Shown: positions 20,228-35,024 of the stretch, piece by piece
Position numbering within the stretch: the first letter of the stretch is position 1
Layout of the letters: each line of letters starts with the position of its first letter
Source of the DNA: Thermoanaerobaculia bacterium
GTDB taxonomy: Bacteria; Acidobacteriota; Thermoanaerobaculia; Multivoradales; Multivoraceae
DNA length: 64,000 nucleotides
Assembly: GCA_022826745.1 (NCBI GenBank)
Contig: JAJDUI010000012.1
Coordinates: 69,378-133,377, forward strand
Direction of reading: 5' to 3'
The notes under the pieces: generated by a model
The model's database searches: none
Told to the model about the DNA's origin: nothing
What the model saw: only the letters and a program-made list of their open reading frames with translations
Made by a program: the position numbers and the translations under genes

Positions 20228-23200
20228 GTGATCGCTGCTCCTGGTGAAGGCTCCGGCCCGGCGCGACTCGCCGCCCGGCGGCCAGTAGCCGTCACGGTTA
20301 CCGCCCTGGCATGCGCCCTGGTGGGCTGGATGTCATGGCGCGAACTGCCCATCGATCTCCTCCCCGACCTGCGCTCGCCGACGATCGTCGTCGCCGTGCG
20401 CTCCGGCGACCGGCCGCCGACGGAGATGGAGCGGCTCTACGGCGAGCAGGTCGAGCAGCGCCTGTTCACCGTGCGCGGCATCCGCGAGGTGCAGCAGGTC
20501 GCCCGCACGGGCCGCCTGATCGCGACCGTCCGCTTCGACTGGGAAGCCGACATGGACCTGGCCCTGATCGAGGTTCAGAAGTCGATCAATCCGGTCGCGG
20601 CCGACGCGGAGGTCGACGAGGTCCTCGTCCGCCAACTGGATCCGAGGCAATCCCCGGTCATGACCCTGGGTCTGGCCGCCGAGCCGGACGGTCCCGATCT
20701 CGCTGAGCTCAGGCGCCTGGCCCGCCGGCAGGTCGCGCCCGCCATGGAGCAGCTCGCCGACGTCGCCGAGGTGAGGGTGCTTGGCGGACGGGAGCTGGAA
20801 GTGCGCGTGCGGGTCGACCGCTACCGCATGCAGGCGTTCGGCGTCACCCTGGGTCAACTCGAGCAGCGGCTGGTGGCCGAGAACGTCGACATCGACGCCG
20901 GCACCCTGGAGGACCGGGGCCAGGTCTTTCTGGTCCGCGGCATCTCGCGTTTCCGCAATCCGCGCGACGTCGAGCGCGTCGTCATCCGGTACCGAACGCA
21001 AGCGGGCGCCGCGGGCCAGGAGACCCGCCAGCCGATCCGGGTATCCGACGTCGCGGAGGTCGAAGTCGCCGACGCCGAGATCGACCACCTGGTGCGGGTG
21101 AACGGCCGGGAGGGGGTCGGCCTGCAGGTGTTCAAGGAGGCCGGCGCGAACACCGTCGAGGTTTCGCGCACCGTCAGATCGGCGCTCGAAGACCTGGAAC
21201 TCGACCTGCCCCGGGTCGAGGTGTCCATGGTGAACGACGACGCCGCCCTAGTCGAGGACGCGATGGCCGACCTGCAGAACGCCGCGCTGGTCGGCATCGC
21301 GCTCGCGATCGTCGTGCTGGTCCTGTTCCTGCGCTCCTTCGGTCCGACCGTCGTCGTCGCTTCCGCGGTGCCCGTTTCCCTCTTCGTCGCCCTGTTCGCG
21401 ATGCGCCTCTGGGACCACTCGCTGAACATCATCACCCTGGCGGGCCTCGCCCTCGGCGCCGGCATGCTGGTAGACAACGCGATCGTCGTCGTCGAGAGCA
21501 TCCACCGGCGCCACCGGCCCGGCGTGCCGGCGGCCGAGAGCGCCGCCCGCGGCACCGGCGAGGTCGCCGGCGCGATCGCCGCCTCGACGCTGACCACCTG
21601 TGTCGTCTTCCTGCCCGTCCTCTTCGTGCAGGGGCTGGCCGCGCGTCTGATCGAGGGCATCGCCTTCACCGTCACCGCGTCGCTGGCCGCTTCGCTCGCC
21701 GTCGCGATGATGCTGATTCCGGCCCTGTCGCGCTGGTTCCTGCCGCGCGCCAAGCCGGGGGCCGGCACCGACGCCGGTGAAGCGGCGGCCGAAGCCGCCG
21801 ACGCAGGGTCGACCGGCCCGGGCGACGCGGACGAGCGTCCCCTCGGCTGGGCTTTCGGAGCGCTGGAGCGGCTCGTGCTCTTCCTGCTGCGCCTGCGCTG
21901 GGTCGTCGTCGGCGCGGCCGTACTCGCCGCCGCGGTCGCGGTGAACGTCCTGCTCGGCCTCGGCAGCGAACTGCTGCCGCCGGCCGACCCGCGGCAGTTC
22001 TCGGTGCGCATGGTCGGACCGCCGGGCCAGCGGGTCGAGGCGACGGCGGCCGCCGTATCCACTCTCGAGGAGGCGGTCCGCCAGGCCGCTGGAGAGCACC
22101 TTGAGGCGATCCAGGCCGAAGTCGGCCGCTTGCCCGAGGATGACCGGCTCGTGACGACCGAACTGACCGAGGAGAACACGGCCCGACTCCTGGTGCGGAT
22201 GTCGGCCGAGGGTCCCACCGGGAGCCAGATCGTCGGCGCCCTGTCTTCGAGCTTCGCCGATCTGCCGGGCACGGAGATCGAATGGGAGGTCGGCACCTCC
22301 GCGCTGGCCGAAGCGCTGGGTTCGTCGGGCCCGCCGATCGTGGTCGAGATCGCCGGCCAGTCCCTGCCCGACCTGCGCGCCGCGGCGACCAGCCTGCGCG
22401 GCTCGCTCGCCGCCAGCGAGGAACTCTGGAACGTCCGTTCGTCCTTCGAGGGCGGCCCGCCCGAACTGCGGATCGAACTCGACCGGGCGATGGCCGACGG
22501 TCTGGGCGTGGACCTGGAGACGATCGCCCGCGTGCTCCAGTCGGCTCTCGACGGACGCAAGGTCACGCTGCTTTCCGTTGGCGACGAAGAGCGCCACGTC
22601 GTCCTTTCGCTGCCCCAGCCCAGGCCCGAGGAACTCGCCGGACTGCGCTTCACGAGCAGTGACGGGGCCGACCTCGTCCTCGGTCAGGTCGCCCGTTTCG
22701 TACCCACCGAAGGGGCGCGGGAGGTCTTCCGCCGCGACCAGCGCCGCGTGGCGCAGGTGACAGCCAGGATCACCGAGGGAAGCGACTACCCCAGGGCGAT
22801 CGCCGCCGCGAACGACGCCATCTCGTCCACCGAGCTGCCCCCCGGATTGATTGTCAGGCTCGCCGGGGAGGAGGAGGAACGGGAGCGGGCAACCTCGGAA
22901 CTGCGCCTGGCCGGCCTGCTGGCGATCGTCCTCGTGCTGATGGTCCTGGCAGGCACGTTCGAGTCCCTGCTGCAACCGCTCACCGTGCTGTTCGCCATCC
23001 CGCTGGCCCTCGTCGGCGTCGCCTGCACCCTGGGACCGCTTGGGCGGCCGGTCGGGGTCATGGCCCTGCTCGGCCTGATCGTGCTCGCCGGCGTAGCAGT
23101 CAACGACGCCGTCCTGCTGATCGCCGCCGCGCGGCGGCTGATGGCCGCCGGCGTCGAGCGGCGAGCGGCCCTGGCCCGCGCCGCTGCGATCCGGCTTCGG

Positions 23201-23413
23201 CCGATCCTCATGACGACGCTCACCACGGTGCTGGTCCTCGTGCCGCTCGCCGCCGGCGCCGGGGAGGCGGCTGAATTGCGGAGCCCGATGGCCTACACGA
23301 TCATCGGCGGCATCGTGACCTCCACCCTCGGTTCGCTGCTGGTGCTGCCCTGCCTGTACCTCATCCTGGCCGGCCGTGGCGGCGGAACGCGACGCACGGA
23401 AGCCGAAGCCTGA
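20228..23413 (+). CDS. RND family efflux transporter permease
   Basis: 1061-aa ORF with the AcrB-like N-terminus 'RRPVAVTVTALACALVGWMSWRELPIDLLPDL'. TM4 reads 'GLALGAGMLVDNAIVVVESI', and the two-fold 6-TM plus large-loop organisation is present. Confidence 0.9.
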   Translation: MIAAPGEGSGPARLAARRPVAVTVTALACALVGWMSWRELPIDLLPDLRSPTIVVAVRSGDRPPTEMERLYGEQVEQRLFTVRGIREVQQVARTGRLIATVRFDWEADMDLALIEVQKSINPVAADAEVDEVLVRQLDPRQSPVMTLGLAAEPDGPDLAELRRLARRQVAPAMEQLADVAEVRVLGGRELEVRVRVDRYRMQAFGVTLGQLEQRLVAENVDIDAGTLEDRGQVFLVRGISRFRNPRDVERVVIRYRTQAGAAGQETRQPIRVSDVAEVEVADAEIDHLVRVNGREGVGLQVFKEAGANTVEVSRTVRSALEDLELDLPRVEVSMVNDDAALVEDAMADLQNAALVGIALAIVVLVLFLRSFGPTVVVASAVPVSLFVALFAMRLWDHSLNIITLAGLALGAGMLVDNAIVVVESIHRRHRPGVPAAESAARGTGEVAGAIAASTLTTCVVFLPVLFVQGLAARLIEGIAFTVTASLAASLAVAMMLIPALSRWFLPRAKPGAGTDAGEAAAEAADAGSTGPGDADERPLGWAFGALERLVLFLLRLRWVVVGAAVLAAAVAVNVLLGLGSELLPPADPRQFSVRMVGPPGQRVEATAAAVSTLEEAVRQAAGEHLEAIQAEVGRLPEDDRLVTTELTEENTARLLVRMSAEGPTGSQIVGALSSSFADLPGTEIEWEVGTSALAEALGSSGPPIVVEIAGQSLPDLRAAATSLRGSLAASEELWNVRSSFEGGPPELRIELDRAMADGLGVDLETIARVLQSALDGRKVTLLSVGDEERHVVLSLPQPRPEELAGLRFTSSDGADLVLGQVARFVPTEGAREVFRRDQRRVAQVTARITEGSDYPRAIAAANDAISSTELPPGLIVRLAGEEEERERATSELRLAGLLAIVLVLMVLAGTFESLLQPLTVLFAIPLALVGVACTLGPLGRPVGVMALLGLIVLAGVAVNDAVLLIAAARRLMAAGVERRAALARAAAIRLRPILMTTLTTVLVLVPLAAGAGEAAELRSPMAYTIIGGIVTSTLGSLLVLPCLYLILAGRGGGTRRTEAEA

Positions 23414-23426
23414 CCGGGAACGCGCC

Positions 23427-26400
23427 GTGAAAGCAGGTCTCGACACGCTCGCCATCCGCCGTCCGGTCGCGGTGTCGATGTTCTTCGTCGGCCTCGTCCT
23501 GCTGGGGGGCTTCGCGTGGCAACGGCTGCCGGTGGAGCTCTTCCCCGCGCTGACGGGCGATTCGCTCTACGTCAGTTTCTTCCGTCCGGGCAGCGAGCCG
23601 GAGACGGTGGAACGCGAGATCCTGATGCCGCTCGAAGCCAGGGTGCGAACCCTGCCCCGGGTGGCCGAGACCTGGGGCGAGGTCACCGGCTCCTCCGGCA
23701 GCTTCACCGTCCGCTTTGAACGAGGCGTCGATCTCAAGGTGCGGGAACTCGAGATGCGCCGCATCGCCGCGGATCTGGCCCGCACGCAGCCGCGCGACGC
23801 GTTCCTCGACGTGCAGTCCGACGACACGAGTGTGTTCTCGAGCTTCGCCATGATCCTGCAGGCGACCGGTTCGGACGACGAGGACGCGCTGCACGACCTG
23901 GTCGAGGAACTGATCACGCCCCGGCTCGCCGCGGTGCCCGGGGTCAGCCAGGCAATGGTGGGCGGCGGCGCCGCTCGCCAGTTGACCGTGTGGGTCGACC
24001 CGAACCGCTGCGCGGCGCTCGGCGTGACGACGGAGGAGGTCACCGCGGCCGTACGCGGCGCGGCCGGACGGCTTCGCTACCTCGGCAGCCTGGAGGACGA
24101 AGCCGGGCGAACGGCCGTGATGCTCGACGGCCGTCCCGTCGGCACCGTGTCGATGGGCGAGGTCCGGGTCGTCCCCGACCGCCCGGTGCTGGTCCGGCAC
24201 GTCGCCGACGTCGAGATCGGTTCCGGGCGTCGCCAGATGCTCTACCGCGTGAACGGCGAGCCATCCGTCGGCGTTCTCGTGTTCCAGGAGGAAGGCGCGA
24301 ACCTGGTCCGCCTCGGCCGCGACCTGCGCCGCCGTATCGAGGAGATCAACGAGGAGTTCACCCCGCTCGGGATTCGCCTCCTCGTCAGCTTCGACGCCGC
24401 CGAACTGGTCGAAACGCAGATCGACCGGCTGCGGAACCTCGGCCTGTCGGGTTTCGCGATCGCTCTCCTGGTCCTGTTCCTGTTCCTTCGCCAGTGGCGC
24501 GCCGTGGCCGTGGTCGCGGTCGCCGTACCGGTCAGCCTGGCCGTCGCCCTTTCCTTCCTCTACGTGGCCGGCCTGTCGCTCAACCTCTTCACTCTGTTCG
24601 GTCTCGCCGTCGGCATCGGACTCATCGTGGACAACAGCGTCGTCGTGTACGAGTCCGTCCAGCGGCGCCTGGAACGCGGCAGGAGCCCCGACGACGCCGC
24701 CGCGGGCGGCATTCGCCGCACCGGCCGCGCCATTGTCGCCGCTTCCGTCACGACCGGGATCGTCTTCCTGCCCGCAGTCATCGTCGACCTGGAGTCGTCG
24801 CTGGTCCAGAACCTGATCGGGCTCCTGTCACTCGCCATCCTGCTGCCCCTGTTCGGCTCGCTGCTCGTGGCAATCGGCCTGGTGCCCCTGCTGGCGCGCC
24901 ATCTCGCCGCACCGGCGGCGATCCGCCGGTTGAGCAAGCTGCGCCAACGTCGCGAGCGCTTCGGCGGCAAGGCGCCGCCGGACCCCACCCGAATCCTCTT
25001 CGCGGGCGTGCTCGCATCCGCGCTGCGCCGGCCGGCGAGCTGGATCACCGGAGTCGTGACCGCCGTCGTCCTGAGCGTCATCGCCGCCCTGTTCCTCGTC
25101 GCTTCCAGCGGACCGGGTCAGGCGCCGATCGCCGACCAGGTCCAGCTCTCCGTGCGCCTGCCGGAGGGACGCGGCAGCCTCGAGTCGGCGGTCCGGGCCT
25201 TCGAACGTCTCGAAACGGTCCAGGAGGTGGACGGCGTAGACCGCGTGGAGAGCATGATCCGGGAAGAAGGGGGATCGCTGACCGTCCACCTCGTGGACGA
25301 AGACGAACGGCCCGAGGACCTGACGGCGGCCTTCGTCCGTAGACTCCTGCGGCCGCCCGCCCGCCGCGCCGGCGTCGAACTCCTGAATCCGGGCGAGGGA
25401 GAAGGACCGGGCGGCCGTGGTGGCGGCGGCGGGGGCGCCCAGGAACTGCTCGGCGGCGGCCCCTCCCGAGTCGTGCTCTCCGGCAACGACAACGAACAGT
25501 TGACCGACCTCGCGGCCCAGGTCACGGAGCGGTTGCGGGAGATCGAGGGCATCGCGAGCGCCTACCCGGCGGTGCGCCCGGGGCCCGATGAACTCCACGT
25601 GAGTCCGAACCGCCGGGCCTTCGACACCTTCGGCGTGCTGCTGGACGAGGTGTTGCCCATGCTCAATCTGGCCGGCCGGGAAGGCACCCGGATCGCCACC
25701 GGCTTCCCGCTGGCCAGCGGACGGGAGCTCCCGATCGTCGTGCAACGGCAGGAGAGCCAGCGCGACGAAGCGCAGTTGATGGACGGCAGCAGCTTCAACC
25801 GCGACGTCTCGCTCAGCGGCCTGCAGCGGCTCCGCGTCTCGACCGGGATCGGCGTGCTGCCGGTCGCCGCCCTGGCGCAGGTGCGGCAGGCGCCTCCCTC
25901 CCCGGTCATCACCCACCACAACGGAGTCCGCGAACGCGAGGTGCTGTACACGTTGTCGCAGGACGTGCCGCGGCGGGGCCCGGCCCGTGACGCGTTCGAC
26001 CGGAGTCTGGACGAAGCGATCGCCAGCATTCACCGGCCCGCAGGCACGACGATCGCGCTCGACCGCTCCGAGGAAAGCACGAACTGGTTCCGGCGCATCG
26101 CCGTGCCGGTCGTTCTTCTCGTCTTCCTCGTGCTGGCCGTGACGTTCGAGTCGATGACCCTGCCGATCCTCGTCCTCATCGCGCTTCCGCTCGCCCTGCT
26201 CGGTTCCGTGTGGGCGCTGGTCGTGACCGGCATGGGGTTCGAGGCGATGGCTCTCCTGGGGGCACTGGTGCTGCTGGGACTCGCGATCAACCCGGCCGTC
26301 CTGCTCGTCGACCGGATGCAGCAGCACACCCTGGGCGCCGGCTGGAGCGCCGGCGCGGCCGCACTCGCCGCGGTCCGCGAGCGGGCCCGTCCCGTGTTGA

Positions 26401-28232
26401 TGACGTCCGCCACGACGATCGCCGCCCTGGCGCCCCTCTCTATCTCGACCGGCCGCGAGAACGAACTCTGGCCACCCTTCGCCACGCTCGTGATCGGCGG
26501 CCTTCTGACCGCGACCGTGCTGACGCTGCTCGTCATCCCCGTCGGCTTCGTCTTCCTCCGCCGGCTCGACGAGCTGTTCAGTCGCGTGGGCCCCTGGGTG
26601 GTGCTCACCTGGCTCGGCGCCGTCATCGCGACCACGGCGCCTCTGTTCGCGTTCGGCGTGATCGAGTCGCTGTTCTGGCAGGTCACCACGACGGTGCTCA
26701 TCGCCGGCGCGCTGCTGGGTCTCACCGTCTGGCTGCTGCCGAAACCGGCGACGCCGGAACCGGAAGCCGTCAGCGGGCCGCCCAGGCTCGTCGTTCGTCA
26801 CCTGCGCAAGACGTACGGCCTTCCCGGACCGGTGCGCCGGGCGCTGCGAGCTTCCACGGAGTTCGCCAGGCGCGTCGCTTCCGCCGGCGGCCAGGCGTTC
26901 CATCCGGCCGACGCGCGCGACCGGCTCCTGCCCCTGTTGCTGCTGCTGGCCGGCGCGATCACCCTGGCCGTGCGCATCCGCGGCGGTCTGGTCATCCTCG
27001 GCATCTGGATCGCGATCCTGCTCCTCGGCTCCAGCCTGCTGCGCGAGATCCGGCGGGCCCGCGGCCACGCCGACGCGCTGGGGCGCGTGAAGCCGGGCGG
27101 CATCGAGGGTGTGCTGACGGCCCTGCTGCCCTGGGGGATCCTCGCGTGGCTGGTCGGCCCGGAGATGGTCGCCGACCCGGAGATCGCCGGCTTCGTCGCC
27201 CTGGCCATCGTCTCCGCGATCATCCTGCTGATCCAGCTCGGGCGGCGTACGGCACGCGTGGAGACGATGCGCCGGGACCAGAAGACGTCTCGGCGCCGCC
27301 GCGCCCGGGGCCTGCGCGGCCAGATCCTCCGTCTCTGGCGCGCCGCCGCAACCAAGCTCTTCGGCCTCGACCTGCCGATCGACACCGTAAAGGCCCTGGC
27401 CGCGGTCAGCTTCGAGGTCGACCGCGGCATGGTCGGCGTGCTCGGCCCGAACGGCGCCGGCAAGACGACCCTGCTGCGGCAGTTGACCGGCATCCTGGAC
27501 TCGACCCGGGGCCGCATCACGCTGGGCGGCGTGCCGCTGCTCAGCGTCCGCAAACGCCTCGCGCGCTACGTCGGCTACCTGCCCCAGGACGCCGGCCTGC
27601 CCCCTCGTCTGACCGCCCGCCAGTACCTCGAGTACTACGCCGCGCTCTACCAGATCGACGCCTCCGAGCGGGCCGAGCGCATCTCGACCCTGCTGCGGGA
27701 GGTCGGTCTCGACGAGCGGGCCGACGAGCAGATCGGCGGCTACTCCGGCGGCATGCGGCAGCGCGTCGCGGTGGCGCGCACCCTGCTCCGACTGCCTCCG
27801 ATCATCGTCGTCGACGAGCCCACGGTCGGCCTCGATCCCCGGGAACGGGTCCGCTTCCGCAACCTGCTCTCGCGTCTGGCCAAGGACCGGATCGTCCTGT
27901 TCTCCACCCACGTCGTCGAAGACGTCGCCGTGGCGTGCGAGCGGGTCCTCGTGCTGACGCGCGGCCGCATGGTCTTCGACGGCCATCCGGCGGCCCTGTC
28001 GCGGGAAGCGGAGGGCCGGGTGTGGTCGTGGCGGACCGCGGACGGCGGCGAGGCGCCGGATCTGCCGGAAGGCGCGGTGCTGGCTGACCAGAAGCCGGAA
28101 GCCGACGGCACCAGCAGCCTGCGCGTGCTTGCCGCGGCCCGTCCCGACGAACGGGCCGAGCCGGTCGAACCGACCCTGGAGGACGGCTACCTGTGGCTCG
28201 CCCGGTCGGTGCGTGGAGAGGCGCCGGCATGA
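23427..28232 (+). CDS. RND efflux permease fused in one ORF to extra TM segments and a C-terminal ABC ATPase domain
   Basis: Likely GTG start at 23427, 13 nt after the previous stop ('VKAGLDTLAIRRPVAVSMFFVGLVLLGGFAWQRLPVELFP'). The RND body runs to about nt 26580 (TM4 'GLAVGIGLIVDNSVVVYESV'). Two TM helices follow, then the ABC-like strand 'PRLVVRHLRKTYG' (about 26781), a ~190-aa hydrophobic insert, and a complete NBD. The NBD has Walker A 'GPNGAGKTT' (about 27444), 'YSGGMRQRV', 'IIVVDEPTVGLD' and 'LFSTHVVED'. The frame is open throughout. Confidence 0.75.
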   Translation: MKAGLDTLAIRRPVAVSMFFVGLVLLGGFAWQRLPVELFPALTGDSLYVSFFRPGSEPETVEREILMPLEARVRTLPRVAETWGEVTGSSGSFTVRFERGVDLKVRELEMRRIAADLARTQPRDAFLDVQSDDTSVFSSFAMILQATGSDDEDALHDLVEELITPRLAAVPGVSQAMVGGGAARQLTVWVDPNRCAALGVTTEEVTAAVRGAAGRLRYLGSLEDEAGRTAVMLDGRPVGTVSMGEVRVVPDRPVLVRHVADVEIGSGRRQMLYRVNGEPSVGVLVFQEEGANLVRLGRDLRRRIEEINEEFTPLGIRLLVSFDAAELVETQIDRLRNLGLSGFAIALLVLFLFLRQWRAVAVVAVAVPVSLAVALSFLYVAGLSLNLFTLFGLAVGIGLIVDNSVVVYESVQRRLERGRSPDDAAAGGIRRTGRAIVAASVTTGIVFLPAVIVDLESSLVQNLIGLLSLAILLPLFGSLLVAIGLVPLLARHLAAPAAIRRLSKLRQRRERFGGKAPPDPTRILFAGVLASALRRPASWITGVVTAVVLSVIAALFLVASSGPGQAPIADQVQLSVRLPEGRGSLESAVRAFERLETVQEVDGVDRVESMIREEGGSLTVHLVDEDERPEDLTAAFVRRLLRPPARRAGVELLNPGEGEGPGGRGGGGGGAQELLGGGPSRVVLSGNDNEQLTDLAAQVTERLREIEGIASAYPAVRPGPDELHVSPNRRAFDTFGVLLDEVLPMLNLAGREGTRIATGFPLASGRELPIVVQRQESQRDEAQLMDGSSFNRDVSLSGLQRLRVSTGIGVLPVAALAQVRQAPPSPVITHHNGVREREVLYTLSQDVPRRGPARDAFDRSLDEAIASIHRPAGTTIALDRSEESTNWFRRIAVPVVLLVFLVLAVTFESMTLPILVLIALPLALLGSVWALVVTGMGFEAMALLGALVLLGLAINPAVLLVDRMQQHTLGAGWSAGAAALAAVRERARPVLMTSATTIAALAPLSISTGRENELWPPFATLVIGGLLTATVLTLLVIPVGFVFLRRLDELFSRVGPWVVLTWLGAVIATTAPLFAFGVIESLFWQVTTTVLIAGALLGLTVWLLPKPATPEPEAVSGPPRLVVRHLRKTYGLPGPVRRALRASTEFARRVASAGGQAFHPADARDRLLPLLLLLAGAITLAVRIRGGLVILGIWIAILLLGSSLLREIRRARGHADALGRVKPGGIEGVLTALLPWGILAWLVGPEMVADPEIAGFVALAIVSAIILLIQLGRRTARVETMRRDQKTSRRRRARGLRGQILRLWRAAATKLFGLDLPIDTVKALAAVSFEVDRGMVGVLGPNGAGKTTLLRQLTGILDSTRGRITLGGVPLLSVRKRLARYVGYLPQDAGLPPRLTARQYLEYYAALYQIDASERAERISTLLREVGLDERADEQIGGYSGGMRQRVAVARTLLRLPPIIVVDEPTVGLDPRERVRFRNLLSRLAKDRIVLFSTHVVEDVAVACERVLVLTRGRMVFDGHPAALSREAEGRVWSWRTADGGEAPDLPEGAVLADQKPEADGTSSLRVLAAARPDERAEPVEPTLEDGYLWLARSVRGEAPA

Positions 28233-28906
28233 TCACGGTGCTGCGGACCTCCGCGGTCCTGCTCGCCGGACGCAGGTACTGGTTGCTGCCATTCCTGCCT
28301 CTCGTATGGCTGGGAATACAGGCCGTCATGCTGGTGGCCGGGATGCGGCCCAGCGTGGAGCCGGTGGCCGCCCAGAACGCCCTGATCGGCGTGCCGGTGG
28401 CGGTTCTCGCCATCTTCCTGGGCGGGCGCACGATCACCGGCGAACTCGACCAGCACAGCCTGGAGATCGCCTACACCGTGCCCGGAGGCGCCCACCGCGT
28501 CTGGCTCGGCAAGCTCGCCGCCGCCATCCTGATGCTGCTCACCAGCCTGGTTCTCCTGGCCGTCGTCACCTATGCCTTCTTCACCGACTTCCCGGTCCTG
28601 TCGAGCCTGTACGGCGCCACCCAGGGAGTCGTCTTCTACCTCGCGGCGGCGATGGGCTTCGGAACGCTGTTCCGCAGCGAGGTTGCCGGCTCCCTGGCCA
28701 CCGTCGGCCTTCTCGGCCTGAACAGCCTGCTCAGCGCGCTCCGCATCTCACCGTTCTGGAATCCGCTCACCGTGGAAGAAGCCGACGCGGCGCAGATGCT
28801 CGCGCTGAACGTTCAGAACCGCATTGGCGTCGCTCTCGCGATCGCGGCGATCGTTGCGCTCACCTTCAGCCGAGCGGAACGTCGCGAGAAGATGCTCGCC
28901 GGCTGA
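28229..28906 (+). CDS. 6-TM ABC-2 type permease (copy 1)
   Basis: ATG overlaps the stop of the fused ATPase (ATGA, 28229-28232). It has the ABC-2 style motif 'ITGELDQHSLEIAYTVPGGAHRVWLGKLAA' and multiple TM segments. It is a paralogue of 29784-30467. Confidence 0.75.
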   Translation: MITVLRTSAVLLAGRRYWLLPFLPLVWLGIQAVMLVAGMRPSVEPVAAQNALIGVPVAVLAIFLGGRTITGELDQHSLEIAYTVPGGAHRVWLGKLAAAILMLLTSLVLLAVVTYAFFTDFPVLSSLYGATQGVVFYLAAAMGFGTLFRSEVAGSLATVGLLGLNSLLSALRISPFWNPLTVEEADAAQMLALNVQNRIGVALAIAAIVALTFSRAERREKMLAG

Positions 28907-28990
28907 ACGCAGCCTTCGTACTCGATCTGACACGCAGCCACCCGCCACCCCGCCCCGCTCAGGTCACTCCACCGCAAGCGCACTCCGTTT

Positions 28991-29008
28991 TCCGTCTAGA
29001 TCCATAGG
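28991..29008 (+). promoter_or_regulatory. conserved 18-nt motif upstream of peptide gene 1
   Basis: TCCGTCTAGATCCATAGG is identical at 16/18 positions to 30576-30593 in the equivalent intergenic region of the duplicated module. It lies 157 nt upstream of the ATG. Its function is unknown. Confidence 0.35.
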
Positions 29009-29164
29009 CGGTCCACCGCCGCCGCAAGCGCCCCTGGGCGTTGCGGCGCTCCGGACCTGTGGAGGTCTTCCGCACGCGGAGGATCTTCCGCCGATCCACG
29101 TCGGCTGTCTGCCCGAACCGGGCCGACGGCAACACGAGACCTATGGAACGAAAGGAAACGAATC

Positions 29165-29464
29165 ATGATGAAGAAGATCCTGCCTGTTGCAGTGACAACA
29201 CTGGTGCTTGTGCTGAGTGCTGGTAGTACGTTCGCAGAGCCACCGGACCCCGCCGCCCCAAGCGACACATCCGGCATCGACTACGACCAGTTCCAACGAC
29301 TCCCGGACGCCGAAATGGCGGCAGTGACCGGAGGCGCCTGGTGGTCCGGAGGCTGCACCGGCGTCATTCGCGGGGCTGGCTTCATTCTCTGGTTGCATGG
29401 TCTTGCCGGCAACCCGGTCCAACAGGGTGTTGGGCTCTACATGCAACAGGTGGAGTGTGCGTAG
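29165..29464 (+). CDS. small secreted peptide precursor 1 (Sec signal plus double-glycine-type motif plus 42-aa two-Cys core)
   Basis: 99-aa ORF with RBS GAAAGGAA. Signal peptide 'MMKKILPVAVTTLVLVLSAGSTFA'. 'LPDAEMAAVTGG' fits the L(-12) E(-8) M(-7) V(-4) G(-2) G(-1) pattern. The core is 'AWWSGGCTGVIRGAGFILWLHGLAGNPVQQGVGLYMQQVECA'. It is a paralogue of 30727-31008. Confidence 0.6.
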   Translation: MMKKILPVAVTTLVLVLSAGSTFAEPPDPAAPSDTSGIDYDQFQRLPDAEMAAVTGGAWWSGGCTGVIRGAGFILWLHGLAGNPVQQGVGLYMQQVECA

Positions 29465-29485
29465 CCGGCCCGTCTTCTGCCGGCT
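29463..29485 (+). terminator. hairpin overlapping the stop codon of peptide gene 1
   Basis: AGCCGGC (29463-29469) / GCCGGCT (29479-29485) form a perfect 7-bp stem with a 9-nt loop, followed by TCAGTT. The T-tract is weak. Confidence 0.35.
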
Positions 29486-29745
29486 TCAGTTGACGACACT
29501 CGCCGCCTTCTCTCTGAGGTCCCCGAGGGACGGACAGACTGCATAACGCGGCTCTCACTTTGACAGGCGCGATGACGATGTTCATTAGTCCACAAAGCCA
29601 CTTCCAAATGGGGGCTGCATCACCTGCGGCACAAGGGCGTCAATCGGCCCCACGTGCCTCTCCAAGTGGGCGCATCATCTTCGTCGCCATCGCGCCGTCG
29701 TCGTCCGTCTCGCTTCATCAGCTCCCAGGTACCAAGCACAGCAAG

Positions 29746-29787
29746 ATCTGGCTCGCTCGGGCAGCGGTCGTTGCAGCCCCGGCATGA
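29746..29787 (+). pseudogene. remnant of an ABC ATPase 3' end retained in the duplicated module
   Basis: 'ATCTGGCTCGCTCGGGCAGCGGTCGTTGCAGCCCCGGCATGA' (IWLARAAVVAAPA*) aligns with the 3' end of the fused ATPase at about 28189-28232 ('YLWLARSVRGEAPA*'), including the ATGA junction. Upstream of about 29740 I see no NBD similarity. Confidence 0.45.
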
Positions 29788-30467
29788 TCACGATCATCCG
29801 ACTCTCCGCAGTGCTCCTCGGGGGCCAGCGCTACTGGCTGCTACCCCTGTTGCCCCTGCTGTGGCTGGCGGGCCAAGCAATGCTGCTCGTCGCCAACGTT
29901 CGGCCGAGCTTCGAACCCGTCGCCGCACAGAACACACTGATAGGAGTGCCAGTCGCGGTCCTCGCAGCGTTTCTGGGCGGCCGGATCATCGCTGGCGAAC
30001 TCGACCAGCGCACAATCGAGATCGCCTACACAGTACCCGGGGGTACCCGCTTCGTCTGGTTTGGGAAGCTCGCAGCCGCGGCCTTGCTCCTGGCTGCCAG
30101 CGCGGCATTGAGCGCGGCGTTGACGTTCGCTCTCTTCACTCCGTTCCCCGTCCTCCAGACTCTCTATGGGGCAGTGCAGGGAGCCCTCTTCTCCCTGGTA
30201 GCGACCAACGGGCTCTCAACACTCTTCCGCAGCGAAACCGCAGGTGCCATGGCCGCCACCGTTGTACTTCTCGTGAACGTTCGGTTCCCAACGACCCACT
30301 TCCGCGTCTCGCCGTTCTGGAACCCGCTCACGGTGGAGGGAGCAGACGCCGATCGGTTGGTCGCGATGGCCGTCCAGAACCGGATCGGGATCGCGCTCGT
30401 CATTGCCGCCATCCTCGCGCTCACCTTCGCCCGCGCGGAACGCCGCGAGCGAATGCTGGGCGGCTGA
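29784..30467 (+). CDS. 6-TM ABC-2 type permease (copy 2, paralogue of 28229-28906)
   Basis: 227-aa ORF colinear with copy 1: 'MITIIRLSAVLLGGQRYWLLPLLPLLWL...IAGELDQRTIEIAYTVPGG...SPFWNPLTVEGADA...QNRIGIALVIAAILALTFARAERRERMLGG'. By eye about two-thirds of residues are identical. No cognate ATPase gene is adjacent. Confidence 0.75.
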   Translation: MITIIRLSAVLLGGQRYWLLPLLPLLWLAGQAMLLVANVRPSFEPVAAQNTLIGVPVAVLAAFLGGRIIAGELDQRTIEIAYTVPGGTRFVWFGKLAAAALLLAASAALSAALTFALFTPFPVLQTLYGAVQGALFSLVATNGLSTLFRSETAGAMAATVVLLVNVRFPTTHFRVSPFWNPLTVEGADADRLVAMAVQNRIGIALVIAAILALTFARAERRERMLGG

Positions 30468-30575
30468 GATCGCACCCGGTACTCCTCACTGGCGCGCAGG
30501 TGCACCCCTCCCGCGCGAACCACGCCATCGTCCGCGCGGCCTCGTCTTCACGAGTGCCAAGTCCGTCCGCTCGAA

Positions 30576-30593
30576 TCCGTCCAGATCCATAGA
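30576..30593 (+). promoter_or_regulatory. conserved 18-nt motif upstream of peptide gene 2
   Basis: TCCGTCCAGATCCATAGA is the second copy of the motif at 28991-29008. It lies 134 nt upstream of the ATG. Confidence 0.35.
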
Positions 30594-30726
30594 TGGCGTA
30601 CGACCGTTCGTTGCGCCGAGAACCGCGCCGGTGAGTCGACGGGCGAAGCACCTCCAAGGCGAAGCCACGCCCTCAAGAACCTCGCGGGATCAACCAAAGA
30701 ACAAGAACCGAGAAAGGAACCCAACA

Positions 30727-31008
30727 ATGAAGAGAGCCCTGACCATCGCACTGGCGGTCGTCGTGTTCGGCGCCGGCACTGTGTTCGCACTGGCGCCGCA
30801 CCCGACTCCAGTGGACGACGCCGCGAACATCGATGCCTACGACCTCGGACCGCTCTCCGAAACGGATCTCCGCGCCGTCTTCGGCGCTCGATGGACCGCG
30901 TGTACCGCCGACCTTACGATGGCCCAGATGCACTTCATGGCCGGCAATCCAGTCGCGGGAGCCTTCCATCTCCTCGCGGCGTATCTCCGTCCGGCGATCT
31001 GCTCGTGA
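30727..31008 (+). CDS. small secreted peptide precursor 2 (Sec signal plus G-A double-glycine-type motif plus 39-aa two-Cys core)
   Basis: Internal ATG of track ORF 30403..31008, with RBS GAAAGGAA. Signal peptide 'MKRALTIALAVVVFGAGTVFALA'. 'LSETDLRAVFGA' fits L(-12) D(-8) L(-7) V(-4) G(-2) A(-1). The core is 'RWTACTADLTMAQMHFMAGNPVAGAFHLLAAYLRPAICS'. It shares 'IDxYD', 'AGNPV' and both Cys positions with peptide 1. Confidence 0.6.
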   Translation: MKRALTIALAVVVFGAGTVFALAPHPTPVDDAANIDAYDLGPLSETDLRAVFGARWTACTADLTMAQMHFMAGNPVAGAFHLLAAYLRPAICS

Positions 31009-31128
31009 GAACGGGCGGAGGAGCCGGAGCTTGACTACCGTCGTCCGGCACGCCGCCGTGCTGCTCGGGGGTCCAGGGAATCGAGGTTCAGATGACCCGT
31101 TGAATCACCGCGAATCCCGACTACCGGG

Positions 31129-32205
31129 TCAGAACTCGCAGGCCAGTCCGGGGTAGCGGAACACGACGCCCGGATCGAGCTGCTTCGGCTTGTTCGCCGC
31201 CTCTTCGGCGCGGGCGCCGGCGAGCATTCCCTCCATCCCGTAGTTGCCCTCGTGACAGGCGTACTCATAGATCGCGTCCTCGGTGCGCTTGAGGGGAATC
31301 GACGCCGTCCAGGGCTTCGTCCATGTCCCCGGATCGTTCACCGTGACCTCCCATTCCAGCGTCTCCGGGTCTGTCAGGGTGAACCGCTCGGTGATCGTGA
31401 GCTGCTCCGAAGAGCCCATGAAGTCGTTCTTCTCCGAGTAGTTCGCCGTCTCGACCACCAGCGTGTCGCCGTCCCAGTGGCCGCGGGAGTCGCCGTTCCA
31501 GAGGCGGACGTCGTCGTCGAGAACGGACTCGTCGCCCAGCCGAATGACGCGGGCGTCGTGGATCATCTCCTGGTGGATGACGACGTGGTCCGGGCTCTGG
31601 AAGAACTGGTGGTAGCCGTTGTAGCCGGCGAAGATGAAGGGGGCGCCGTAGCTGATACAGCGCTCGGCGATCGGGCGGTCGAGCCAGGAGTCGGCCGGAT
31701 GCTCCATCAGGTGCTTAACCCGCTTGCAGAGACGCTCCCTCGCCGGTTCGGTGAAGGGCGGGATCAGTCCGTCCGGTGGATCGACGACCAGGGAGGTGCG
31801 CTTCGTGAAGTAGCGGTCCGCGATCCAGAACTGGTTGTAGTTGCCGGTCGTCGGGTCGTATGAGGTCGCCTTGGTCCGCTCGATCGCAGCCAGGACGAGC
31901 TGGTCGCCGAACAGGGCGTCGGCGCCCGGGTTCGTCGCCTCGGCGACGGCCGCCATCAGCTCCTGGAACTCCTCGTCCGTCAGGCGTTCCTTGCCCGCCC
32001 ATGCGGCGGGGCGCTGCAGCGGCGTGCCGTTGTTGTTGGCCCACACGCCCTGGAGGTCGGGATGGCCGTAGGCGGTACGCGGGATCGTCCAGTCCGCGTC
32101 TGCCGCGTTGTTGTTCGCTGCCGGCACCGCACCGGCGGCCAGCCCGAGCAACAGGGCCATCACGCCAATCGTCGCCACGGCTCTCAACCGTTCGTTCTTC
32201 CTCAT
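31129..32205 (-). CDS. conserved hypothetical secreted protein
   Basis: Likely start is ATG at 32205 ('MRKNERLRAVATIGVMALLLGLAAGAVPA'), preceded by GGGAGGG; the track ORF extends to 32319. I recognise no catalytic motif. The C-terminal region reads 'YEYACHEGNYGMEGMLAG'. Confidence 0.6.
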   Translation of the reverse strand: MRKNERLRAVATIGVMALLLGLAAGAVPAANNNAADADWTIPRTAYGHPDLQGVWANNNGTPLQRPAAWAGKERLTDEEFQELMAAVAEATNPGADALFGDQLVLAAIERTKATSYDPTTGNYNQFWIADRYFTKRTSLVVDPPDGLIPPFTEPARERLCKRVKHLMEHPADSWLDRPIAERCISYGAPFIFAGYNGYHQFFQSPDHVVIHQEMIHDARVIRLGDESVLDDDVRLWNGDSRGHWDGDTLVVETANYSEKNDFMGSSEQLTITERFTLTDPETLEWEVTVNDPGTWTKPWTASIPLKRTEDAIYEYACHEGNYGMEGMLAGARAEEAANKPKQLDPGVVFRYPGLACEF

Positions 32206-32275
32206 CCGACTACCCTCCCAAGACGGGTGAACATCGCGTCCTCCGATCATAGCCGCCGGTTCACGGCGATCCTCG

Positions 32276-32770
32276 TCACGTCCAGCCCCAGGCGTTCGCT
32301 TCGTCATCCCAGAGCGCATAGCAATCAGTCGCCAGACCGGCCTCGAGGACCCAGTTGGGCATGTCGGTCACCAGTCCGGTGGGGCCCTGCTGGACCGTGA
32401 TCGGGCGGCCGTTCGCGGTCCAGGCCGACAGCACGTGACCCAGCACCTGCGCCCCCTCACCTTCTCCGGACTCCACGTCGAGCGAGTCGATCCGTACCCG
32501 CCACTCGACGTTCTCGCCGGAACCGTCAGGGCGAATGAAACGAAGCTCGTCGCCGTCGGCTTCGAAGTCCGCCACCAGGTCGATCGATTCGATCTGCGCG
32601 ATGAACGACGCGCGCAGCGTGTCCACGTCCGGCTGAGGTTCCGACGGACCGCAGGCCGCGATCGCTCCGACCAGAGCCAGGGACAACAGACCGCCGCCGA
32701 GAAGCCGGCCGCCGGCGCGAGGACGCGCCGCGGACCGACCTGACTGCCGTGTTTCGACGATGTGGAACAT
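32276..32770 (-). CDS. hypothetical lipoprotein
   Basis: Only the last 164 codons of track ORF 32276..34639 look real. The start is ATG at 32770 ('MFHIVETRQSGRSAARPRAGGRLLGGGLLSLALVGAIAACGP', lipobox AIAAC). The upstream part of that ORF is antisense to the MFS gene. Confidence 0.55.
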   Translation of the reverse strand: MFHIVETRQSGRSAARPRAGGRLLGGGLLSLALVGAIAACGPSEPQPDVDTLRASFIAQIESIDLVADFEADGDELRFIRPDGSGENVEWRVRIDSLDVESGEGEGAQVLGHVLSAWTANGRPITVQQGPTGLVTDMPNWVLEAGLATDCYALWDDEANAWGWT

Positions 32771-32902
32771 GGCGTCAACTCTAACGCCTGGCCCACGTAC
32801 TACTCTCGCGACGCTCCAGTACCTCGCCGGCACTCCAGGCCCGGGGACGGCGATTCCGCGCTCTCTTCCGCGGCAACCCCACCGGCGGAGCCGGTCCACA
32901 CC

Positions 32903-34135
32903 ATGACCACGCCTCAACCCAACGAGCAGCCCCGCCGCCAGGCCGGCGTCGGCTTCATCTTCGCCGTGATCCTGCTCGACATGCTGGGGGTCGGCCTGAT
33001 CATCCCCGTCTTCCCCGAACTCGTCGAGCAGTTCCGGGGCGGCGACACGTCCTCCGCCGCCGTTGCCGTGGGCGCGATCGCCGCCTGCTATGCCGTGGCG
33101 CAGTTCGTCTGCGCCCCGATCCTCGGCGCCCTGTCCGACCGCTTCGGCCGGCGGCGGATCCTGCTGCTGTCCATGTTCGGCCTTGGCGTGGACTACCTGG
33201 TCATGGGTTTCGCGCCATCGCTCGGCTGGCTGTTCGCTGGCCGGATCGTCGCCGGCGTGATGGGCGCCAGCATCACGACGGCGAACGCCTACATCGCCGA
33301 CATCTCGACGCCCGAGACGCGGGCCCGGAACTACGGGCTCGTCAACGTCGCCTTCGGCGTCGGCTTCATCCTCGGACCAATCTTCGGCGGCCTGCTCGGC
33401 GGCATCGACCTGCGGCTGCCCTTCTTCGTCGCGGCCGGCCTGTGCCTCCTGAACTCGCTCTACGGCTTTCTCGTGCTGCCGGAGTCCCTGGCGCCGGAGA
33501 ACCGGAACGCCTTCTCGCTCCGCAACGCGAATCCGGCGTCGAGCATCGCACATCTCCGCACCTACCCCCTGGTCGCCAGCCTGGCCGTCGCCTTCCTGCT
33601 GATGGCGCTCGCGCAACGCGGCCTCGAAACCTCCTGGGTGCTCTACACGGGCTATCGCTACGGCTGGAACGAGTTCCAGAACGGCCTCGCGCTGGCGGCC
33701 GTCGGCGTCGCCGCGGCCCTGGTCCAGGGCTTCCTGGTGCGACCCGCGGTCACCTGGCTGGGCGAGCGCCGGGCTGTGCTCGTCGGCTTCGGCATCGGCA
33801 CGCTGGCCTTCGCCGGCTACGGCCTCGCGCCGAACGGCCCGGTCCTCGTCGCGGTGATCTTCGCCGGATCGCTCGGCGGCATCGCCGGGCCGGCGGTCCA
33901 GGCGATCATCGCGGGCACCGTGGCGCCGACCGAGCAGGGGAAGATCCAGGGGGCGCTCACGTCGCTGATGAGCCTGTCGGCGATCGCGGCGCCGCTCGTC
34001 TTCACCAGCGGCGTGTTCAGCTACTTCACCTCCGACGCCGCCCCGTTCGAGCTGCCCGGCGCGCCCCTCCTGGGCGGATCGCTGCTGATGGCCGTAGCCA
34101 TGCTGCTGCTGGTCCGCGCGTTCCGGCGACACTGA
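32903..34135 (+). CDS. MFS transporter (TetA/drug:H+ antiporter-like)
   Basis: ATG at 32903 ('MTTPQPNEQPRRQAGVGFIFAVILLDMLGVGLIIPVFP'), MFS motif A 'GALSDRFGRRRILL', and about 12 TM segments. Confidence 0.85.
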   Translation: MTTPQPNEQPRRQAGVGFIFAVILLDMLGVGLIIPVFPELVEQFRGGDTSSAAVAVGAIAACYAVAQFVCAPILGALSDRFGRRRILLLSMFGLGVDYLVMGFAPSLGWLFAGRIVAGVMGASITTANAYIADISTPETRARNYGLVNVAFGVGFILGPIFGGLLGGIDLRLPFFVAAGLCLLNSLYGFLVLPESLAPENRNAFSLRNANPASSIAHLRTYPLVASLAVAFLLMALAQRGLETSWVLYTGYRYGWNEFQNGLALAAVGVAAALVQGFLVRPAVTWLGERRAVLVGFGIGTLAFAGYGLAPNGPVLVAVIFAGSLGGIAGPAVQAIIAGTVAPTEQGKIQGALTSLMSLSAIAAPLVFTSGVFSYFTSDAAPFELPGAPLLGGSLLMAVAMLLLVRAFRRH

Positions 34136-34196
34136 CGACTCAGGCACCCGCCAACCAGCCGGCGCAGGTAGAATCGGCCGCTCAAGGAGGTCCACG

Positions 34197-35024
34197 ATGC
34201 CGTTCGACAACTCGTCGCTTCCCATTCGACTCTTCACCGCTTCCCACGAGCGTTCGTGGAACCCCGCCGACATCGACTTCTCGCAGGAGCGCGCCGACTG
34301 GCTGTCGTTCTCGGACGACGAGCGGAACCTGCTGATCCGCCTCGTCTCCGGCTTCCGGGTCGGCGAGCGCGGCGTGACCCACGAACTCGCGCCGCTCCAG
34401 TTCCGCTTCCGCCAGGACGGCCGGCTGGAAGACGAGATGTACGTCACCGCGCAGATGTACGAGGAGGCTCGGCACGTCCAGTTCTTCGAGACCTGGCTGA
34501 TCGAGGCGCTGCCGGGCCGGTTCGGGGTCGACATCCCGTATCCCGACCTCCACGGCGACATGTTCGCCACCCGCCTGCCGGCGGTGATGCGTGCCCTGTT
34601 CACGGACGACAGCCCCGAGGCGCTGCTTCGCGCCGTCATGCTGTACCACTTCTACGTCGAAGGCGTCGGCGCCGAGGCCAGCTATCCGATCTACTACAAG
34701 ATCTTCGAGCGGACCGGCAAACTGCCCGCCCTCAACCGCGGCATCCGCCTGATCCAGCGCGACGAGGCGCGCCACATCGGGTTCGGCGTGTACGTTCTGC
34801 AGAGGCTGCTCGCGGAGCACCCGCGCCTGACCGACCAGTTCGAGGCGCAGGTCGAGGCGATGCGCCCGTTCGCGGAGGACGGCCCGAACCAGACCTTCGC
34901 CGGCTTCGAGCCGGGCAAGGCGCCGTTCGGTCTCGACTACGACGAGTACCGGCAGCTCTACCTCGACAAGCTGGAAGAGATGCGGCAGAGCATCTACGAC
35001 GGCCGGCTCGCGGCCGCGGTGTAG
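34197..35024 (+). CDS. R2-like ligand-binding oxidase (ferritin-like di-metal carboxylate protein)
   Basis: 275-aa ORF with SD AAGGAGG. The metal ligand motifs 'MYEEARH', 'YVEGVGAEASY' and 'IQRDEARHIGFG' match ribonucleotide reductase R2-like proteins. Confidence 0.75.
   Translation: MPFDNSSLPIRLFTASHERSWNPADIDFSQERADWLSFSDDERNLLIRLVSGFRVGERGVTHELAPLQFRFRQDGRLEDEMYVTAQMYEEARHVQFFETWLIEALPGRFGVDIPYPDLHGDMFATRLPAVMRALFTDDSPEALLRAVMLYHFYVEGVGAEASYPIYYKIFERTGKLPALNRGIRLIQRDEARHIGFGVYVLQRLLAEHPRLTDQFEAQVEAMRPFAEDGPNQTFAGFEPGKAPFGLDYDEYRQLYLDKLEEMRQSIYDGRLAAAV

Follow-up and report, generated by a model that had tools for sequence, protein, structure and literature searches.

The double-glycine leader of bacteriocin precursors has hitherto been treated as a cytoplasmic signal that substitutes for a signal peptide of the general secretory (Sec) pathway. 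How, then, should one understand a small gene whose product appears to carry both signals, one behind the other? Such a gene, here called peptide 1, lies at positions 29165-29464 on the forward strand of a 64,000-nucleotide stretch of DNA (the window) from a Thermoanaerobaculia bacterium (assembly GCA_022826745.1, contig JAJDUI010000012.1, positions 69,378 to 133,377). An earlier reading of the letters alone, referred to below as the original prediction, described its product as a Sec-exported precursor with a textbook double-glycine-type leader and a two-Cys core, and correctly recognized that this combination is atypical. In this study, we followed up that prediction by comparative sequence analysis of the peptide gene, its homologs and its neighbors. 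The reading that we favor, at a probability of about 45%, is that peptide 1 and a paralog, peptide 2, are pre-pro-peptides of a lineage-restricted, secreted, bacteriocin-like, membrane-active family, and that their locus is a recombination hot spot where strains come to combine signals, pro-regions and cores in new ways, as is typical of antagonism or recognition loci.

The open reading frame (ORF) of peptide 1 begins with ATG and encodes 99 amino acids, and the translation quoted in the original prediction is exact. By sequence, the product divides into a Sec-type signal peptide (MMKKILPVAVTTLVLVLSAGSTFA; residues 1-24, nt 29165-29236), an acidic pro-region (EPPDPAAPSDTSGIDYDQFQRLPDAEMAAVTGG; residues 25-57, nt 29237-29335) and a 42-residue core (AWWSGGCTGVIRGAGFILWLHGLAGNPVQQGVGLYMQQVECA; residues 58-99, nt 29336-29461), followed by the stop codon at 29462-29464. 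The features expected of the predicted signal peptide are recognizable by eye: the n-region is positively charged (MMKK), the h-region spans 15 hydrophobic residues, and T-F-A occupies positions -3 to -1 of an x-F-A|E-P-P signal-peptidase junction that is conserved family-wide. The last 12 residues of the pro-region (residues 46-57, nt 29300-29335) form the double-glycine-leader-like motif LPDAEMAAVTGG, just where it had been placed. The core has Cys near each end, as had been described, at core positions 7 and 41 (C64 and C98, the latter being the penultimate residue of the protein). A Shine-Dalgarno-like box (AAAGGAAA, 29151-29158) ends about 7 nt ahead of the ATG. The G+C content is 0.607 at 29150-29449 versus 0.70-0.76 in the upstream genes of resistance-nodulation-division (RND) pumps, which bears out the remark that the gene is lower in G+C than its neighbors, and G+C at third codon positions (GC3) is 0.69 versus 0.88-0.93 in neighboring genes.

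A GC3 below that of the neighbors, a core with a ratio of nonsynonymous to synonymous substitution rates (dN/dS) near 1 versus the closest relative, and the lack of any family annotation might together be taken to mean that peptide 1 is no functional gene but an ORF that arose by chance in low-GC DNA between the genes of a variable region. This explanation is effectively refuted by conservation. In approximately 40 homologs the frame is intact, the products measure 90-103 aa, and the signal, G56 and both Cys are retained; indels comprise whole codons, and the Shine-Dalgarno box is conserved. Over the whole gene, dN/dS stays under 1. The signal is the most constrained part of the gene, with dN/dS of 0.10-0.48 (0.10-0.23 in three of four locus comparisons and 0.48 in the fourth), whereas the core has values of 0.56-1.04; the neighboring transporter genes, RND2::NBD (see below) left aside, have 0.08-0.29. 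Judged by this pattern of conservation, in which frame, length and key residues are kept down to ~30% identity, peptide 1 is clearly a real coding gene.

Peptide 2, a paralog of 93 aa with the same layout, is encoded at 30727-31008 on the forward strand. It has the signal MKRALTIALAVVVFGAGTVFA, the double-glycine-type motif LSETDLRAVFGA (nt 30853-30888, forward strand) and a two-Cys core ending in ...RPAICS, and an AAAGGAA box lies 8 nt ahead of its ATG. The two peptides are 32% identical (BLASTP E = 1e-11), and peptide 2 matches the hidden Markov model (HMM) of the family with E = 1.7e-27. When the pattern L-x3-[DE]-[LMIVF]-x2-[VIL]-x-G-[GAS] was run against the six-frame translation of the window (127,996 residues), it matched twice, once in each peptide. 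Pfam and NCBIfam hold no family model for either of them and gave sub-threshold leader matches only. A word-indexed search of 5.8 billion proteins identified 22 close relatives of peptide 1, and the sole name attached to these was 'hypothetical protein', from an Acidobacteria metagenome-assembled genome (MAG). An exhaustive profile search of 1.84 billion cluster representatives returned 23 matches at E <= 0.001; 21 are true members (90-102 aa, representatives at 50% identity) and two are low-complexity repeats. All reference-genome matches are MAGs labeled Thermoanaerobaculia or Candidatus Multivorans, in the phylum Acidobacteriota. As far as sequence databases can tell, the family is tiny, unannotated and confined to Ca. 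Multivorans-like Thermoanaerobaculia MAGs, a lineage that is uncultured and marine.

The original prediction had named conservation of the motif in homologs as one of the checks on which it should stand or fall. In an alignment of 30 family members (42% mean column identity), the motif is conserved. Numbered back from the presumed cleavage site, position -12 is L in 27/30 sequences, -8 is D or E in 26/30, -7 is M, L or I in 29/30, -4 is V, L or I in 29/30 and -2 is G in 30/30, that is, 87-100% at these five positions. Position -1 is less restricted, with G in 16 sequences, A in 7, R in 4, K in 2 and T in 1 (G/A, 23/30), and two further homologs outside the 30 have E or S there; wherever -1 is R, K or E, the next residue is always Gly. 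Exactly three positions are invariant in the alignment, G56, C64 and C98. Each core contains exactly two Cys, one located 2-8 residues in and the other 1-4 residues from the C-terminus, and 26 of the 30 members have exactly 33 residues between the predicted signal-peptidase site and the G-G site. The pro-region is always acidic (net charge -2 to -8), and the cores, 39-48 residues long, are hydrophobic with a net charge of -2 to +4; several core types include a ~20-residue hydrophobic stretch. The search pattern that had been proposed for homologs does exist in the family, save that its 'AGNPV' part is a turn found in some core types only. The length of the pro-region is fixed though its N-terminal half is poorly conserved, and the E-P-P that follows the predicted cleavage site is nearly invariant.

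Is the motif a double-glycine leader in the usual sense? The established recognition rule calls for a helix with Leu-12, Glu-8, Leu-7 and Val-4, followed by GG, GA or GS, and long leaders of this type exist, e.g., Nif11 and NHLP (PMC6363468). Both window motifs, LPDAEMAAVTGG and LSETDLRAVFGA, agree with this consensus at every key position, as had been stated for peptide 1, whereas the family as a whole departs from it at -1. The likeness to double-glycine-leader peptides extends to the layout: a 12-residue amphipathic helix with L-12, an acidic residue at -8, hydrophobic residues at -7 and -4, G-2 and mostly G or A at -1 directly precedes the variable core, the leader is conserved and the core hypervariable, and the core, rich in Gly, hydrophobic and close to neutral in charge, carries a C-terminal Cys. 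Colicin V-type microcins look similar in this respect. Curated HMMs of double-glycine leaders (TIGR01847, BlpC, etc.) matched at E = 0.02-0.06, with ~14 bits versus cut-offs such as 70 bits; the best NCBIfam match of peptide 1 was the BlpC leader (E = 0.023, sub-threshold). Among the 19 listed NCBIfam families with sub-threshold matches, five are bacteriocin or lantibiotic precursors (lichenicidin A2, GG_sam_targ, BlpC, bactofencin and bacteriocin_sig), with eight member matches together. Since the resemblance is conserved and falls at the boundary between conserved and variable parts, we consider it real and functionally meaningful.

Resemblance of the motif does not make these peptides substrates of peptidase-containing ATP-binding cassette (ABC) transporters (PCATs). 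They would be classical PCAT-dependent class II bacteriocins or microcins if the hydrophobic N-terminus were simply part of a long leader and if a C39-peptidase ABC transporter encoded elsewhere both cut after GG in the cytoplasm and exported the core, all in a single step. The full consensus match of the window peptide and the precedent of long double-glycine-type leaders (PMC6363468) would suit this explanation, and the absence of a PCAT pertains to the ~44 scanned ORFs of the 64-kb window. We nevertheless regard it as very improbable. Everything expected of a cleavable Sec signal is present at the N-terminus, which is also under the strongest constraint in the gene; the motif is internal, placed after that signal and 21 further residues; the two invariant Cys fit periplasmic oxidation; many members have R, K, T or E at -1; the leader HMMs stay below their cut-offs; and no C39/PCAT gene was found in the window. 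In addition, the topology is wrong for C39 cleavage: the C39 domain works in the cytoplasm, out of reach of any pro-peptide that Sec has exported. Membership among PCAT substrates was rejected on the internal position of the motif behind a Sec signal, the missing PCAT in the window, the unrestricted -1 position and the unmatched curated HMMs. The 'textbook' PCAT-type leader of the original prediction fails on the same points, including R, K or T at -1 in 7/30 members. Three other known types of signal were also rejected: prepilin-like processing (no G|F..E motif), PEP-CTERM/exosortase sorting (no C-terminal PEP-TM-basic tail) and lipoproteins (no lipobox Cys).

Conservation is high in the N-terminal half up to the double-glycine-like motif and gives way to hypervariability in the core that follows it, and homologs break away from the window sequence at or near it: P0020 departs exactly at GG, and P0008 departs after CTGVIR. 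In one of the related loci, L004, the signal is nearly identical to that of the window (2/24 codons non-synonymous) and the core is not (25/35); pro-region and core are unrelated. The reverse is seen in L006 and L008, where divergent leaders are joined to the same core. Across strains, the first peptide slot is occupied by at least four unrelated core cassettes. The arrays also contain decayed genes, e.g., in L021 (9579-10550; 11236-11517) what is left of a peptide leader, joined to the front of a permease, together with a peptide that has lost part of its N-terminal signal, and in L001 (11998-12755) a frameshifted third permease. These decay products point to rapid gain and loss of modules.

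A conserved leader, a hypervariable mature region and allelic cassettes also form the classic pherotype pattern, and the peptides could be secreted pheromones that define pherotypes, as do ComC, BlpC or AgrD, with the permeases serving as exporters. It agrees with this idea that the best, though sub-threshold, NCBIfam match of peptide 1 is a pheromone leader, that of BlpC, and that a dedicated conserved element upstream of the peptide genes (see below) suggests regulated transcription. However, neither the window nor the syntenic loci yielded a gene for a sensor histidine kinase or a response regulator. The hydrophobic cores of 39-48 residues, presumably stapled by a disulfide, are larger and look more membrane-active than known pheromones, and their tandem pairing with ABC-2 permeases resembles immunity pairing. 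A pheromone role is therefore improbable in our estimate.

The transporter genes that adjoin the peptides belong to a same-strand string on the forward strand, and these were assigned with Pfam and NCBIfam. At its head is an ABC ATPase (14601-15587), followed by a 1177-aa protein (15584-19117) with an N-terminal ABC-2/GldF-like permease, ~900 aa without a Pfam match and a C-terminal Golvesin_C domain; the latter gene is translationally coupled to those of the ABC ATPase and the RND adaptor. Next come the periplasmic adaptor (membrane fusion protein, MFP) of an RND pump (19114-20199, 361 aa; Pfam HlyD_D23; NCBIfam RND_mfp E = 1.2e-45, above cut-off) and RND1, an AcrB/MdtB/C-like RND permease (20228-23413, 1061 aa; Pfam ACR_tran E = 3.7e-199; NCBIfam RND_permease_2). 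The fifth gene (23376-28232) encodes an unusual fusion of a second RND permease with an ABC nucleotide-binding domain (NBD), designated RND2::NBD, whose longest ORF has 1618 aa and whose true start is probably a few codons downstream. Hydropathy and NBD matches in the PDB divide the fusion into an AcrB-like RND permease, a ~270-aa extension with ~6 hydrophobic segments and a DrrA/GldA/ABCA-type ABC ATPase; between an NBD-beta1-like segment, 'RLVVRHLRKTYG', and the Walker A region lie ~180 aa of membrane segments. Six other loci likewise encode the fusion in one ORF, of 1588-1639 aa, and its C-terminal part has thousands of homologs, many with both PF00873 and PF00005, mostly in Acidobacteriota MAGs. 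A literature search for RND-ABC fusions in Acidobacteria found no description.

Behind the fusion are two small ABC-2-type permeases. The gene of the first, perm1 (28229-28906, forward strand, 225 aa; weak Pfam ABC2_membrane_2 match), has an ATG that overlaps the stop codon of RND2::NBD (ATGA, 28229-28232), and the protein has 768 homologs, the named top matches all being from Acidobacteriota MAGs. The second, perm2 (29784-30467, forward strand, 227 aa; ABC2_membrane_2 E = 1.3e-6), is encoded between the two peptide genes and is 65% identical to perm1 (E = 2e-86). Only two ABC ATPase domains occur in the window, both of the DrrA/GldA/ABCA type without a peptidase, and the ATPase of RND2::NBD is the only one available to perm1 and perm2 in the operon.

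After the fusion, the gene order in the window is perm1, peptide 1, perm2, peptide 2. The general order NBD-perm-(PEP-perm)n-(PEP) was strict in 14 of 14 non-redundant peptide-bearing loci, the window included, each having 1-3 peptides and 2-3 permeases. The sole more distant relative examined, L017, has the RND::NBD fusion with one permease and no peptide; an extra permease is present only where peptides occur. The comparison of L004 with the window indicates how these genes move: right-flank genes (31129-35024) are 96-98% identical, the transporter genes from RND1 to perm2 73-84%, and the peptide 44%. By this contrast, the transporter-peptide block appears to have been exchanged as a unit, i.e., as a recombining allele; the core type is swapped in L004, where the transporter genes are also most divergent.

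Strict one-to-one alternation of peptides and permeases is also what one might see if the product were an accessory subunit, an uncleaved ~75-residue periplasmic or inner-membrane partner (adaptor, gate or regulator) of the ABC-2 permease or the RND pump, with the double-glycine-like helix serving as a protein contact. Several properties of the family agree with such a role: position -1 is not conserved as G/A/S, no protease was found encoded in the locus, the constant 33-residue spacer suggests a structural ruler, and the ~20-residue hydrophobic stretch of several cores could span the membrane or dip into it. On the other hand, hypervariability of this kind, with at least four unrelated cassettes in one slot, dN/dS up to ~1 and mosaic recombination, is abnormal for structural subunits. 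Furthermore, the transporter is conserved without any peptide in L017, and peptide genes decay and turn over, as evidenced by the leader remnant and the truncated copy in L021. We consider an accessory subunit rather unlikely and return to a secreted, bacteriocin-like pre-pro-peptide as the preferred reading.

What might such a peptide look like, and how might it leave the cell? An AlphaFold2 (AF2) model built on the family alignment contains a short helix (residues 48-54) within the leader-like motif and, in the core, a helix (58-79), a turn at AGNP and a second helix (84-94), with block-mean values of the predicted local distance difference test (pLDDT) of 77-87 for the core. The two Cys are located 16 and 15 residues from the predicted hairpin turn, which would make a hairpin-stapling disulfide geometrically natural in the model. 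A Foldseek search of the PDB with this model gave no match at E <= 0.001; the best (E = 7.6), a pore-forming-toxin hairpin, is not meaningful.

In the mechanism that we propose, the N-terminal signal would direct the precursor to Sec export, and signal peptidase I would cut at ..TFA|EPP. In the periplasm, Cys64 and Cys98 would be oxidized to a disulfide that staples the predicted helix-turn-helix hairpin almost head-to-tail, while the acidic, length-invariant 33-residue pro-region may keep the hydrophobic core soluble or inactive. The C-terminal amphipathic helix of the pro-region (L-12, D/E-8, M/L-7, V-4, G-2) may have descended from, or converged with, a double-glycine leader, and could act as a recognition or cleavage tag, either for a non-PCAT periplasmic or extracellular protease that would cut after G-G/A or for a transporter. 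The core or pro-peptide would finally cross the outer membrane, plausibly, if speculatively, via the adjacent MFP-RND1-RND2 pump. Gene order and co-occurrence suggest that the ABC-2 permeases, powered by the ATPase fused to RND2, may provide peptide-specific self-protection or export.

The second export step has a precedent in the heat-stable enterotoxins of Escherichia coli. In STa, a signal of 19 aa and a pro-sequence of 34 aa precede the Cys-rich mature peptide (PMC6356903; PMC8277102), and heat-stable enterotoxins pass through Sec, are oxidized by DsbA and trimmed, and exit via the tripartite pump MacAB/TolC (PMC8277102; PMC6356903). The 24 + 33 + 42 layout of peptide 1, with its invariant C64 and C98, resembles this arrangement of signal, pro-sequence and Cys-containing peptide; a periplasmic disulfide would be expected in both cases, and an MFP-dependent tripartite pump could serve as the second export step. 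Genes for the MFP, RND1 and RND2::NBD immediately precede the peptide genes and share their strand; the window yielded no gene for an outer-membrane factor, and the operon is known in a peptide-free form as well. Two-step processing, as put forward in the original prediction, thus has a parallel as regards Sec export followed by a tripartite pump. The suggestion that the adjacent pumps also perform the cleavage has no basis, for they have no recognizable protease domain; the 1177-aa ABC-2/Golvesin_C protein and the linker of RND2 were likewise searched for one, with a negative result. Unlike STa and STb, to which it has no sequence similarity, the family would have one disulfide rather than two or three, its core is hydrophobic and predicted to be helical, and its adjacent pump is an RND/RND::ABC hybrid rather than MacB. 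Tandem permease partners and hypervariability, both features of the family, are not found with the enterotoxin genes.

A second set of analogs is provided by Sec-dependent bacteriocins with ABC immunity transporters, such as enterocin P, lactococcin 972 and SdpC/SDP. SdpC is a Sec-exported pro-protein that is trimmed to a 42-residue, disulfide-containing hydrophobic peptide. As in the present family, a Sec signal takes the place of a dedicated leader and ABC transporter genes adjoin the structural gene. The module itself is reminiscent of LanFEG, with a DrrA/GldA-type NBD and two ABC-2 permeases (~6 transmembrane segments, ~230 aa) encoded beside the peptide gene; the ATPase would correspond to LanF and the two permeases to LanE and LanG, and by analogy the permeases may confer immunity. 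In contrast, the Sec-dependent bacteriocin and LanFEG systems come from Firmicutes, which have no outer membrane to cross, and are not known to have an internal double-glycine-like leader; there is no sequence homology between these bacteriocins and the family, and here the ATPase is fused to an RND pump.

Several points weigh against a secreted, bacteriocin-like peptide. The evidence is computational: it establishes the gene, the family, the conserved motif, the invariant Cys, the mosaicism and the gene order, and from these we infer signal cleavage, the disulfide, the cut after G-G/A, the route of secretion, the activity and the role in immunity. The signal-peptide cleavage site was assigned by eye. 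The AF2 model is of moderate confidence only (mean pLDDT 64) and has no significant match in the PDB, and the core is near-neutral rather than cationic. No gene for an outer-membrane factor, and none for a Peptidase_C39/PCAT or other protease, was found among the ~44 ORFs of the window that were scanned. A strict GG/GA/GS protease would refuse R, K, T or E, which roughly one member in four has at -1, and so one protease with GG specificity cannot serve the whole family. The pump operon exists without peptides in L017 and predates them, which means that it is not a dedicated exporter. Finally, all data come from one narrow clade, and the gene order may therefore partly reflect shared ancestry rather than function.

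A bolder version would hold that a double-glycine-type leader helix has been transplanted behind a Sec signal to become a periplasmic export or processing tag, read by the hybrid RND::ABC machine or by a protease relaxed at -1. The peptides would then constitute a new class of diderm bacteriocins with two-step secretion, in which each toxin cassette travels with its own ABC-2 permease and all share one pump-tethered ATPase. We think this version quite unlikely as a whole.

Our literature search found no described system that combines a Sec signal, an internal double-glycine-type leader, a hypervariable two-Cys core and tandem ABC-2 permeases behind an RND::ABC fusion. Each ingredient has precedent; the combination appears to be new and the family is unannotated, and the peptides probably represent a kind of bacterial weapon or signal not seen before. 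If the favored reading is right, the double-glycine leader is not tied to PCAT transporters and has been reused in the periplasm of a diderm bacterium, and the rules for genome mining of bacteriocins and microcins would have to be widened. Current mining pipelines for these peptides demand a PCAT and an N-terminal leader; they would consequently miss this family. It would also open a way to study how strains antagonize or recognize one another in Ca. Multivorans and other Thermoanaerobaculia, a marine clade of Acidobacteriota that is uncultured, and would be the first means of doing so. In addition, the locus draws attention to a widespread and apparently undescribed RND::ABC-ATPase fusion that may supply energy for partner permeases.

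The conserved element mentioned above is 21 nt long; it was first spotted by eye and then confirmed by search. In the window it has two matches, versus none expected, both on the forward strand: TCCGTCTAGATCCATAGGCGG at 28991-29011, 174 nt upstream of the peptide 1 ATG, and TCCGTCCAGATCCATAGATGG at 30576-30596, 151 nt upstream of peptide 2. Its consensus is TCCGTCYAGRTCCATAGRYGG. Nearly every locus has it 151-175 nt upstream of peptide 1, and the window and L016 have it at this distance upstream of peptide 2 as well; in other slots, degenerate copies precede the peptide genes by 70-93 nt. The element is present in 17 of 21 loci, on the coding strand only and before peptide genes only, and is absent from the peptide-free L017. 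The loci of this survey included the window, L001-L016, L019 and L020. We read it as a putative promoter or operator of the peptide genes, in which case each of them would form a regulated transcription unit by itself.

The first copy of the element lies in a GC-rich, conserved 183-nt region in front of peptide 1 (28985-29167, forward strand) with a predicted multi-hairpin fold (minimum free energy -92.6 kcal/mol, z = -5.0 versus shuffles). This region is conserved in 10 loci, better so than the peptide core; its covariation is weak, with three pairs showing compensatory change and a covariation term of +1.3. It could be a cis-regulatory RNA or simply a set of GC-rich palindromes, and an Rfam search of 27000-33000 at E <= 1 gave no match. 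The region upstream of peptide 2 folds no better than shuffles (z = 0.1), and the predicted leader fold of peptide 1 is hence not a shared feature. No promoter-like site was found at 28000-31400 in a sigma-70 scan, and a terminator scan of the same interval gave a single terminator-like site, located within perm2, where chance alone would have produced more. When the two permease-peptide modules were compared by blastn, the spacers were not detectably similar and only the permease genes matched, at 71%.

Two further observations concern the borders of the variable array. On its right, the array in the window ends at a fixed border formed by a gene on the reverse strand (31129-32319), which encodes a 396-aa secreted protein that is 90-96% identical in relatives and has no Pfam or NCBIfam match. 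Missing in the window is a pair of genes for a VapB-like antitoxin and a PIN-domain toxin, which occupies the distal end of the array in L001 (13430-14099), L007 (11797-12472), L008 (11489-12158), L019, L020 and L021.

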